Source: a virus. From it: DNA of 14,049 nt. Positions 8,744 through 10,439 of the stretch are shown here, piece after piece. The notes under the pieces were generated by a model. That model saw nothing but the letters and a program-made list of their open reading frames with translations. It ran no database searches and was not told where the DNA came from. The stretch lies in the UHGV virus genome UHGV-0286042. One strand, 5' to 3'. Numbering within the stretch: the first letter of the stretch is position 1; each line of letters opens with the position of its first letter. Both the position numbers and the translations under genes were made by a program.

Positions 8744-9094
8744 ATGGGTAAGGCCAAACTTCTAATTTGTGGTGTTCTTTTATCAGTTGTCGGCACGTCA
8801 GAGGCCTTAGCTGATACTCAGTGCGGGCCGTATCGCCTCACTGCGGGCAAAGAAGGACTAATGCTTATTAACGGGGTAAAACCTGAAACGCAAAAAATGT
8901 CTTTTCTCAAGTCTAAAGATGACTACCAAAACATGAAAGCAGAATGGATGGTTGCAACCGACCAACCCGGCCGCTGGGTTGGGCTTGAGTACATCAAGCG
9001 CAACGGCAAAGCCATTCTCAACGCACAGTGGCTGCAAGCCAGCATGAATGCGCCGCGTCAGTATGCAACATACGACTGCGTGAAGGTGAAGTAG
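8744..9094 (+). CDS. moron-encoded small secreted (periplasmic) protein, function unknown
   Basis: ORF track 8684..9094; start chosen at ATG 8744 (MGKAKLLICGVLLSVVGTSEALA|DTQCG...) giving a classical Sec signal peptide with AxA-like cleavage site; mature protein about 93 aa with Cys near both termini; lower GC than flanking tail genes; no structural-gene resemblance. Confidence 0.55.
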   Translation: MGKAKLLICGVLLSVVGTSEALADTQCGPYRLTAGKEGLMLINGVKPETQKMSFLKSKDDYQNMKAEWMVATDQPGRWVGLEYIKRNGKAILNAQWLQASMNAPRQYATYDCVKVK

Positions 9095-9100
9095 GTATAA

Positions 9101-9126
9101 AGAAAAAGCGCCGGGTTGACCGGCGC
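9101..9126 (-). terminator. rho-independent terminator (hairpin GCGCCGG-GTTGA-CCGGCGC, T-run on the minus strand)
   Basis: 7-bp perfect GC-rich stem 9108-9114 / 9120-9126, followed on the minus strand by TTTTTCT (9107-9101); lies directly 3' of minus-strand ORF 9133..9483 and 3' of the + strand secreted-protein gene. Confidence 0.6.
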
Positions 9127-9132
9127 GCCAAG

Positions 9133-9483
9133 TTATTCCTCTTTGAAGCTGATGTTCTTGCACTGCTCCATTACTTCAATCAGTTCTTTTGACGTCAGGT
9201 TTTCTACTTCGATTTTACCTTTCTCTGTGGTCATTGTTATTTTTTTGGATGATCTGGTCTGTATCCATTTTCTTGCGATAGATGCAATGGCTATACAAGC
9301 TGGTGACGACGTGGCTACGATGATAGTTATGTCGACGAGCGTGCCAACCGCATTAATTGAGTCAGCAGTTCTGATTCGCCTGCGTATTTTATAGTCACTT
9401 TCAGGTATGTTATCCTGGATTACGGAGAGCAATTCTTTGCCTATTGCTGGAGTAAATTTTATGGTTGTTTCTGATTTTGGCAT
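9133..9483 (-). CDS. moron-encoded small membrane protein (single predicted TM helix, K/E-rich C-terminus), function unknown
   Basis: 116-aa ORF on the opposite strand to the whole tail operon, in a markedly AT-rich stretch where long ORFs are unlikely by chance; hydrophobic segment LVDITIIVATSSPACIAIASIA; own terminator at 9101-9126; weak RBS. Confidence 0.5.
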   Translation of the reverse strand: MPKSETTIKFTPAIGKELLSVIQDNIPESDYKIRRRIRTADSINAVGTLVDITIIVATSSPACIAIASIARKWIQTRSSKKITMTTEKGKIEVENLTSKELIEVMEQCKNISFKEE

Positions 9484-9622
9484 AAAGGTATCCGGCCCCT
9501 ATCGTGAGAAGCTAAAAATTGCCTTGCGGCTTTTCCTTGGCAGCCTGTATCTCGCTACAAACCACGACGTTACCGTAGTTTTAAGCAAGACCTACATTCA
9601 GGGCTGCAAAGAAGATAAATAG
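9461..9622 (+). CDS. candidate small ORF (53 aa), alternatively a non-coding leader or sRNA ending at the 9663-9687 terminator
   Basis: GGAG at 9449-9452, 8 nt upstream of ATG 9461; ORF overlaps the 5' end of the divergent minus-strand gene; followed about 40 nt later by a + strand intrinsic terminator. Confidence 0.25.
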   Translation: MVVSDFGIKVSGPYREKLKIALRLFLGSLYLATNHDVTVVLSKTYIQGCKEDK

Positions 9623-9662
9623 CACGGACAAATCAGCCTTCAAACCCTGACGTTTGATCAGT

Positions 9663-9687
9663 AACCCGCCGCCGAGCGGGTTTTTTT
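9663..9687 (+). terminator. rho-independent terminator on + strand (CCCGC-CGCCGA-GCGGG followed by TTTTTTT)
   Basis: 5-6 bp GC stem 9665-9669 / 9676-9680 followed by 7 consecutive T (9681-9687); sits inside the tail operon immediately upstream of the spike gene RBS. Confidence 0.6.
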
Positions 9688-9698
9688 ATGGAGTTTTT

Positions 9699-10439
9699 AT
9701 GCCAATTCCAACTCAATCACAGATCGGCGGAGAGCAGCAGACCGCGCAGGCCATTGCCGATTCGGTGTCTACCCAGATGCGCGTAGCGATGCCTGGCATC
9801 ATTCAGTCGTTCGATCCTGATACTGTTACCTGCACAGCAGAGGTGGCGCTTCGCGGTATTGTTGGCGACGGCTCCACCGAATTAAAACCGCTGGTGGATG
9901 TGCCGGTTATCTTTCCTCGCGGCGGTGGTTGCACGCTGACCTTTCCGGTAAAAGAAGGCGATGAGTGCCTGCTGATCTTTGCCGACCGTTGTATCGATTT
10001 CTGGTGGCAGAGCGGCGGCGTTCAGGAGACCGTCGACCCGCGCCAGCATGACTTATCTGATGCGTTCGCCATCGTTGGCCCGCAGTCGCAAGCGCAGAAA
10101 ATCAGCGGTATCAGTACCAGCGCCGCGCAGCTGCGAACCGATGATGGCTCGGCGTTCGTAGAGGTCGCAGCAGGGCATAACATCACCGTTAAAACGCCGG
10201 GCAAGCTTACGGCTACGGCTGAGGGTGGAACGACAATCACATCCCCGACTATCACGCTGAACGGCAACGTAACGATTAACGGTAACCTGTCTCAGGGAAT
10301 GGGAGAAAGTGGCGGTACTGCGACGATGCTTGGGCCGGTGACGGTAACGAATGACGTAACAGCTTCTGGTATCAGTGTCGCCACGCATAAACATGGCGGA
10401 GTACAGACTGGCGGGGGAACTACCGGAGGGCCGCAATAA
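9699..10439 (+). CDS. baseplate central spike protein (P2 gpV / Mu gp45-like)
   Basis: ORF track 9654..10439, but 9654 start would translate through the terminator hairpin; ATG 9699 has GGAG at 9690-9693; Gly/Thr-rich beta-helix-like C-terminus with HKH motif (ATHKHGGVQTGGG) typical of spike apex domains. Confidence 0.65.
   Translation: MPIPTQSQIGGEQQTAQAIADSVSTQMRVAMPGIIQSFDPDTVTCTAEVALRGIVGDGSTELKPLVDVPVIFPRGGGCTLTFPVKEGDECLLIFADRCIDFWWQSGGVQETVDPRQHDLSDAFAIVGPQSQAQKISGISTSAAQLRTDDGSAFVEVAAGHNITVKTPGKLTATAEGGTTITSPTITLNGNVTINGNLSQGMGESGGTATMLGPVTVTNDVTASGISVATHKHGGVQTGGGTTGGPQ

Follow-up and report, generated by a model that had tools for sequence, protein, structure and literature searches.

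A probable two-gene accessory cassette before the spike gene of a lambdoid myovirus-tailed prophage, with a conserved terminator and a possible toxin-antidote-like gene pair

In lambdoid phages, accessory genes ("morons") can be inserted among the late genes, and transcription through the ant moron of phage P22 is thought to affect the level of the tailspike (PMC2629481). Small RNAs (sRNAs), termed anti-sRNAs, are also found at moron sites of lambdoid prophages (PMC4104026). A further relevant system is the EACC1 family, described as the constant partner of a caspase-like protease in a two-gene arrangement (PMC7159879); a recent preprint describes EACC1 as an autoinhibited pore-forming toxin that is activated by that protease (bioRxiv 10.1101/2025.11.14.688446). 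Here, we analyzed positions 9437-9687 of a 14,049-nucleotide stretch (the window, to which all coordinates refer) of the virus genome UHGV-0286042. An initial annotation had read this segment as a terminated plus-strand unit, a candidate small protein or sRNA, inside the tail operon. We consider it probable that the segment is the right half of an approximately 600-bp two-gene accessory cassette, or moron, in a variable slot of the late operon of a lambdoid, myovirus-tailed prophage, and that its two genes are a possible toxin-antidote-like pair. The architecture is mostly ordinary, that of a terminator-bearing moron in a Q-dependent late operon. Analysis of the segment also uncovered an undescribed family of small proteins, an EACC1 relative without a protease, and an ultra-conserved element in the 3′ untranslated region (UTR).

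The window covers tail and baseplate genes of a prophage late operon (sheath, tube, tape measure, hub, spike, and baseplate J) and is collinear, at 88 to 97% identity, with a prophage of Escherichia coli G3/10, in which the small-gene unit recurs unchanged (NZ_CP060075.1, around 2,835,850-2,836,450). The latter prophage is lambdoid: it encodes, all on one strand, a CI-type S24 repressor, O/P-type replication genes, NinG/NinE, and a Q-family antiterminator, together with lysis, terminase, head, and tail genes, and it has two intrinsic terminators between Q and the holin gene. The variable slot lies between an STY1065-like gene, which ends at 9094, and the next late gene on the plus strand, which encodes the spike (9690-10439 including its ribosome-binding site [RBS]; Gp138-type N domain and GpV apex motif; Pfam PF18352 at 8.1e-41, PF18946, TIGR01644). 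In related E. coli prophages, the slot holds Phd/Doc, DUF4236, or an EACC1-like gene; in phage Omnitron, it holds a gene for a signal-peptide protein, and other relatives carry Arc, antirepressor, KilA-N, Bro-N, or HicA genes. In 80 loci of IMG/VR that have a related spike, the distance between the two flanking genes ranged from 72 nt, where the slot is empty (L112; such L-numbers are the labels of related loci compared with the window), to more than 1,400 nt. A scan of one genome per species yielded one locus only, and the diversity described here was drawn from IMG/VR, metagenome contigs, and exact-protein look-ups. The slot therefore contains what a moron is in the sense of Juhala and Hendrix, extra DNA of varying content between genes that are adjacent in related phages. 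The cassette also carries its own terminators, at 9098-9126 on the minus strand and 9663-9687 on the plus strand, which face outward at its two ends, and the collinear G3/10 prophage has an antiterminated late operon, as the window's own phage presumably does.

We note that this slot (9095-9698 in the window; also L002, L004, L038, L036, L151, L156, and L177) is a cargo hot spot, in which several cassettes sometimes stand in tandem and in which relatives include a HicA-like toxin among their cargos. The DUF4236 cassette (L004 1968-2180) has about 190 nt without an open reading frame (ORF) of more than 15 codons between a minus-strand gene and a plus-strand terminator; this stretch may contain a promoter or specify a non-coding plus-strand RNA.

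The right boundary of the slot is an intrinsic terminator on the plus strand (9663-9687), the only canonical terminator on the window's coding strand. Its arms, AACCCGC and GCGGGTT, enclose the loop CGCCGA (9663-9682) and are followed by seven T's (9681-9687). The 7-bp stem has five G-C pairs and a 6-nt loop; the folding energy, which the initial annotation had put forward as a check, came to −10.6 to −11.1 kcal/mol for the hairpin alone and to −15.4 kcal/mol (z = −1.9) when it was folded with a small upstream hairpin. The T-run is separated from the GGAG of the spike gene (9690-9693) by 2 nt, and not by about 10 nt, as first reported, and from the ATG (9699) by 11 nt. Each of the 80 related spike loci (58 unique upstream contexts), the empty slot included, has a hairpin with a T-run immediately ahead of the spike RBS, whatever the cargo. 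The commonest stem is ACCCGCC/GGCGGGT, others being CCAGC/GCTGG, AGCCGC/GCGGCT, CCCACC/GGTGGG, and CCCGTC/GACGGG, and compensatory changes were seen in five of the seven stem pairs. The identical hairpin also follows the Phd/Doc cargo. These comparisons bear out the coding-strand terminator of the initial annotation, which is both conserved and covarying. They do not support its assignment to the small-gene unit: judged from its position in every relative, it belongs to the slot. A TTG-initiated ORF (9654-9698) traverses the terminator in the spike frame and would lengthen the spike protein; in L036 and L120, the two frames differ, and the ORF was rejected as an artefact of mechanical listing.

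The identical hairpin was also found in another prophage type, where it lies after a lambda-like pR′ (TTGATT-16-TAAATT, with the pause motif AACGATGGG) and just after a Q-type antiterminator gene, a position like that of tR′. This case comes from a set of ∼937 E. coli genomes in which a 59-nt query had a weak (81%) match; two of the set were inspected. At that locus (L149 2450-2560; E. coli 042 and ∼937 other E. coli genomes), the hairpin, AACCCGCCGCCGAGCGGGTTTTTT, ends a transcript of ∼65 nt from the lambda-like pR′.

Late transcription must read through a terminator placed inside the operon, one of the possibilities named in the initial annotation. In lambda, Q-modified polymerase is expected to ignore intrinsic terminators, and the puzzle is resolved because the closest prophage encodes a Q antiterminator; for the window, the same explanation is by extension. 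During lytic growth, Q-modified RNA polymerase would read through the terminator, and in a lysogen the terminator would end transcripts initiated in the cargo, so that none would enter the spike and baseplate genes. A different function is conceivable, in which partial termination during lytic growth fixes how much spike and baseplate protein is made in comparison with the upstream tail genes and the small gene merely precedes the attenuator. Such a role is unlikely in our estimate, given that a Q-modified polymerase should pass the hairpin, that the same hairpin occupies a tR′-like position, where Q read-through is the rule, and that no conserved alternative (antiterminator) structure exists. 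It would nonetheless fit the presence of the terminator in 80 of 80 loci, the empty slot among them, its abutment on the spike RBS, and the effect on tailspike level that has been ascribed to transcription through the P22 ant moron (PMC2629481).

Among described elements, the immI-type moron of the tailspike region is similar in several respects. It, too, is extra, rapidly exchanged DNA that lies between late genes adjacent in some relatives, immediately precedes the spike gene, has a terminator at its boundary, and belongs to a Q-dependent late operon, and the Arc, antirepressor, KilA-N, or Bro-N genes found in the slot of the window's relatives add to the likeness. The window differs in having a myovirus-type tail with a Gp138/GpV spike and EACC1-like and 53-amino-acid (aa) genes instead of the immI genes. 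Furthermore, its terminator is a fixed feature even of the empty slot, and its own promoter is a candidate only.

Upstream of the terminator, the plus strand carries a small-protein gene of 53 codons (9461-9622; ATG at 9461, stop codon at 9620-9622), preceded at an 8-nt spacing by the Shine-Dalgarno sequence GGAG (9449-9452), both as initially annotated. GGAG or GGAGG is retained in all small-gene variants, including those with unrelated upstream DNA (L036 and L156). The conservation check that had been proposed for this ORF was clear in its outcome: the ORF is intact at 53 codons in 19 of 19 unique DNA variants (from 36 loci), variable sites at codon positions 1, 2, and 3 number 24, 12, and 45, and the median pairwise ratio of nonsynonymous to synonymous substitution rates (dN/dS) is 0.12 in the 53-codon frame versus 0.23 to 2.2 in the other five frames. 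Between clades, dS is saturated and the small proteins are still 74 to 89% identical. Synonymous sites are free to vary from the ninth codon on; codons 1 to 8 double as coding sequence for the beginning of the opposite gene. For both the ORF and the terminator, reality was judged from conservation and not from single-sequence scans, and on that basis the comparisons show that the 53-codon ORF encodes a genuine protein under purifying selection.

Of the two options named in the initial annotation, the small protein therefore stands, and an sRNA in place of a protein is rejected for the ORF body because of the codon-position pattern, the dN/dS ratio, and the conserved RBS. A purely non-coding cis-antisense sRNA with a fortuitous ORF would match the overlap with the 5′ end of the divergent gene and the end at a terminator. 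It is contradicted by the coding signal, that is, by a dN/dS of 0.12 in the ORF frame only, by the 24/12/45 distribution of variable sites, and by an ORF that stays intact and of fixed length at saturated dS behind a conserved RBS, and its probability is close to nil. A leader-peptide attenuator was likewise rejected: the ORF is selected at the protein level, its stop codon lies 40 nt before the hairpin, and there is no conserved alternative pairing.

The small-protein family comprises 31 protein clusters of 40 to 80 aa, nearly all of 51 to 63 aa, from E. coli, Klebsiella, Brenneria, and Pectobacterium; PGAP calls the window's member as WP_016243572.1. It is an orphan family, with no match in Pfam, NCBIfam, PHROGs, or PADLOC, nor as a profile against PDB sequences, and tblastn searches of INPHARED phages and PLSDB plasmids gave nothing. 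AlphaFold2, run with a 16-sequence alignment, returned a single long helix with a predicted local distance difference test score of 66.5 and a predicted template modeling score of 0.34, a model too poor for a fold search. We also considered that the protein might serve in tail or baseplate assembly, as a factor encoded by the late operon, and not be an accessory gene product. Its gene does lie on the coding strand between structural genes and in L036 directly follows another plus-strand gene. However, only ∼5 of the 80 loci that have a closely related spike contain the gene, its companions are EACC1-like and antirepressor-type cargo, in Brenneria it is found away from a spike gene, and its product matches no structural family in PHROGs or Pfam. 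An assembly function is thus very improbable.

The left half of the cassette is a minus-strand gene (9133-9483) for a 116-aa EACC1-family protein with one hydrophobic helix (Pfam PF19953). At the left cassette end lies its intrinsic terminator (9098-9126, minus strand), with seven G-C pairs (GCGCCGG, TCAAC, CCGGCGC) followed by TTTTTCTTTA; it is retained in relatives, with stem changes from GCGCC to GTGCC. The window protein scores 23.6 bits with PF19953, exactly the cut-off. Ten of 11 diverse homologues match the EACC1 model (best E value, 6.6e-7), the copies of 80% and 75% identity are named EACC1 by PGAP, and the median dN/dS of 0.14 indicates purifying selection. Annotation of the two genes is inconsistent among genomes (L001 3110-3760; L003 2562-3131; L005 2188-2767): G3/10 and M172-1 have a call for the small gene and none for the intact EACC1-like gene, and the reverse holds in Res13 and Ec-U7, where EACC1 is annotated and the small gene is not. 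When the window clade is compared with the Res13 clade (window 9133-9622 versus L003), dS is 0.30 for the small gene and 1.13 for the EACC1-like gene, a difference that suggests a recombination breakpoint inside the cassette.

The window protein shares with the EACC1-caspase system (PMC7159879; bioRxiv 10.1101/2025.11.14.688446) a small, single-helix EACC1-family protein of ∼116 to 122 aa, and the family trait in that system is the formation of membrane pores after the autoinhibitory part has been removed. Of the two components of the system, the EACC1 domain is present here, at the cut-off, and the adjacent protease is not: no caspase-like or other protease gene lies beside the EACC1-like gene, whose neighbors are tail genes and the 53-codon gene only. 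Its partner is instead this divergent, overlapping gene. The locus also differs in its setting, an enterobacterial prophage as opposed to an actinobacterial or multicellular-bacterial genome, and in its weak scores with the profile hidden Markov model (HMM).

The two genes are arranged head to head. The EACC1-like gene starts at 9483 on the minus strand, so that 23 nt (9461-9483) are coding on both strands; an overlap with the 5′ end of a divergent membrane-protein gene had been recognized from the outset. The 23-nt overlap recurs in L120, L151, and L152, an overlap of 20 nt is found in L113, and the RBS of each gene sits within the other gene. Because each mRNA must hold its own RBS, the two mRNAs would necessarily be complementary over at least 9449-9495, which covers both initiation regions, and mutually antagonistic expression would therefore be expected, with each mRNA hindering translation of the other. 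A divergent small gene stands beside 28 of 28 EACC1-like loci retrieved from IMG/VR. The small gene was also found without EACC1, both in deletions that leave ∼95 to 125 nt of the EACC1 5′ end (L006 and L025/26) and behind unrelated plus-strand genes (L036, L154, and L156). This asymmetry of co-occurrence resembles that of a toxin and its antidote. Since the EACC1-like gene was never seen without the small gene and the small gene survives alone, we infer that the small gene, through its protein, its mRNA, or both, would most likely act as the partner or antidote of an EACC1-like membrane toxin. The two proteins themselves show no relationship when aligned with hhalign (small protein versus EACC1-like proteins; probability, 0.25%). 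In Brenneria (L151 and L176), the pair is located in an Arc/antirepressor region away from the spike gene.

The arrangement is also like that of symE/symR-like type I toxin-antitoxin pairs, in that a divergent transcript is complementary, by geometry only, to the initiation region of a putative membrane toxin, and in that the putative toxin is never found without its partner and orphan partners occur. It departs from them in that the partner is not a non-coding antitoxin; its transcript encodes a conserved protein under purifying selection (dN/dS, 0.12), and the putative toxin exceeds typical type I toxins in length.

For expression of the small gene, the initial annotation had proposed a weak sigma70-like promoter at TTGCCT (9437-9442) and TATGGT (9460-9465) with a 17-nt spacer. 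Both hexamers are present, with 8 of 12 matches, fewer than the 9 that the scan required; across the whole window, there are 16 promoter-like sites compared to 11.2 ± 3.2 in shuffled sequences, a chance level, and the hexamers are not retained in relatives. Moreover, this promoter cannot express the ORF because its −10 hexamer contains the ATG, and a transcript would start downstream of the start codon. A promoter-like sequence at 9477-9505 (TTGGCA-17-TATCGT) was also discarded; it lies inside the ORF, and the last position of its −10 hexamer varies with the codon that follows an invariant Pro-Tyr. The best candidate −10 for the small gene is TATGTT at 9405-9410 on the plus strand. The aligned position reads TGGTATAAT in L024, TGGTATGGT in L037/L025, TATGTT in the window clade, and CACAGT in L005, a pattern that is ambiguous because the position is also EACC1 coding sequence. 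If transcription starts near this candidate, the small-gene mRNA would be ∼230 to 270 nt long.

The 3′ UTR of the small gene has two distinct parts. Immediately after the stop codon lies a spacer (9623-9643, plus strand) whose length is conserved and whose sequence is not: the distance from stop codon to block is 23 nt (the script's count) in 30 of 33 unique units and 14, 26, and 40 nt in the others. It is followed by an ultra-conserved block of 19 to 27 nt, AYCCTGAYRTTTGAWCAGT (9644-9670, core 9644-9662, plus strand), which extends into the 5′ arm of the terminator. Compared in pairs, the variants are on average 90% identical in the block, 48% in the spacer, and 55% at third codon positions. 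The block is unchanged in loci whose proteins are only 21 to 45% identical (L113, L120, L152, and L154), is retained with a different terminator hairpin (L156), and was seen once without the ORF (L076). Some block loci were retrieved with the block pattern itself, and the conservation also holds in loci found via proteins only. In Brenneria the block is degenerate and the ORF reads into it; the small ORF of L151 and L176 has 63 aa as it runs into the degenerate copy, AAATCCTGACAAAATAACAG. We also note that CCTGACGTT, upstream of the pR′-associated hairpin of L149, faintly resembles the block.

Several explanations for the block were tried and discarded. As an RNA hairpin, it would form the stems UCAAAY/RUUUGA and CUGAY/AUCAG, each of which is broken in several variants. 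As a minus-strand promoter for EACC1, it has no conserved hexamers. The LexA consensus spacing is CTG-N10-CAG, and the CTG-N9-CAG of the block is one base short of it. An Rfam scan of 9000-9800 at E values up to 5 gave sub-threshold matches only (sroD, 21 versus 50 bits; Trp_leader, 18.2 versus 41; queA, 16.1 versus 52.6).

The layout of a variable 5′ part, a conserved U-rich segment of ∼45 nt, and a terminator leads to the hypothesis, by analogy, of a 3′-UTR-derived or Hfq/ProQ-bound RNA module; as in 3′-UTR-derived sRNAs, a conserved 3′ UTR segment ends in the mRNA's own terminator. The mRNA could then have two functions, encoding the 53-aa protein and yielding a 3′ regulatory RNA of ∼45 nt (block plus terminator) that would be released by RNase E between GAY and AUUU and bound by Hfq or ProQ. 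Such an RNA would resemble 3′-UTR-derived sRNAs and the anti-sRNAs of lambdoid prophages, with their conserved 3′ scaffold and variable 5′ part. The contrast in identity between the block and both the spacer and third codon positions speaks for this explanation, as do persistence of the block at low protein identity, with another hairpin, and without the ORF, the fixed spacer length, the U-rich stretch ahead of the terminator, and the precedent of prophage anti-sRNAs at moron sites (PMC4104026). On the other hand, there is no Rfam match, neither candidate small hairpin is kept in all variants, and no internal promoter is conserved. A search for targets, which covered the prophage and the EACC1 initiation region and not the host genome, found none outstanding in the 49-kb prophage region (best energy, −27.4, within the shuffled range of −25 to −32) and no significant pairing with the EACC1 initiation region (z of 0 to −1.4). 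The AgvB/AsxR anti-sRNAs (PMC4104026) share the setting, a lambdoid-prophage moron site, and the plan of a conserved ∼45-nt segment that ends in a terminator with variable sequence before it; the block has no sequence homology to either of them, and the window segment lies in the 3′ UTR of a coding gene. On balance, we regard a dual-function RNA as a tentative idea, somewhat ahead of the attenuator. We note that the alternatives considered here are partly non-exclusive.

Several observations weigh against a two-gene moron with a toxin-antidote-like pair as we have described it. Q was seen in a close relative, and the window itself contains no Q region, so that the read-through step is carried over from that relative. 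The EACC1 assignment depends on weak HMM scores, with the window member exactly at the cut-off, and toxicity of the window's version is only assumed because characterized EACC1 needs cleavage by an adjacent protease, which this locus lacks. Few independent lineages underlie the asymmetry of co-occurrence, and retrieval was pattern based. No convincing conserved sigma-70 promoter for either gene was found in the variants compared, and the late transcript might be the sole source of small-gene expression. Finally, a moron with an antidote does not explain the ultra-conserved 3′ UTR block. A bolder proposal is a new, self-contained toxin-antidote or abortive-infection module in which an orphan EACC1 pore-former without a dedicated protease is checked by a dual-function 53-aa protein and RNA element (the 3′ UTR block and terminator serving as an sRNA or chaperone-binding scaffold), the whole being embedded in and insulated from the tail operon of a lambdoid prophage. 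We consider this doubtful.

Two features outside the cassette deserve mention. The STY1065-like protein (8684-9094) has an N-terminus, MGKAKLLICGVLLSVVGTSEALA, that resembles a signal peptide, which is unusual for a gene between hub and spike, and the gene may itself be an accessory or exclusion gene; its true start is likely the ATG at 8744, the TTG start of the mechanically listed ORF probably being wrong. A G+C-rich hairpin, GGCCCCGAAAGGGGCC, lies at 18-35, just upstream of the window's first gene, and is terminator-like on the minus strand only.

Taken together, these comparisons turn a puzzling intra-operon terminator into a rule for this phage lineage, in which the slot ahead of the spike gene is a landing site, capped by a terminator, for accessory genes that can be exchanged, such as toxin-antitoxin pairs, antirepressors, and defense-like genes. 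They bring out, from inconsistent genome annotation, a previously undescribed family of roughly 53-aa proteins, and the invariant 3′ UTR block is a candidate regulatory RNA element of prophages. They also point to an EACC1 relative without the protease on which all characterized EACC1 systems depend. Should the pair turn out to be a toxin-antidote or defense module, it would show how a gasdermin-like pore-former can be controlled without proteolysis.

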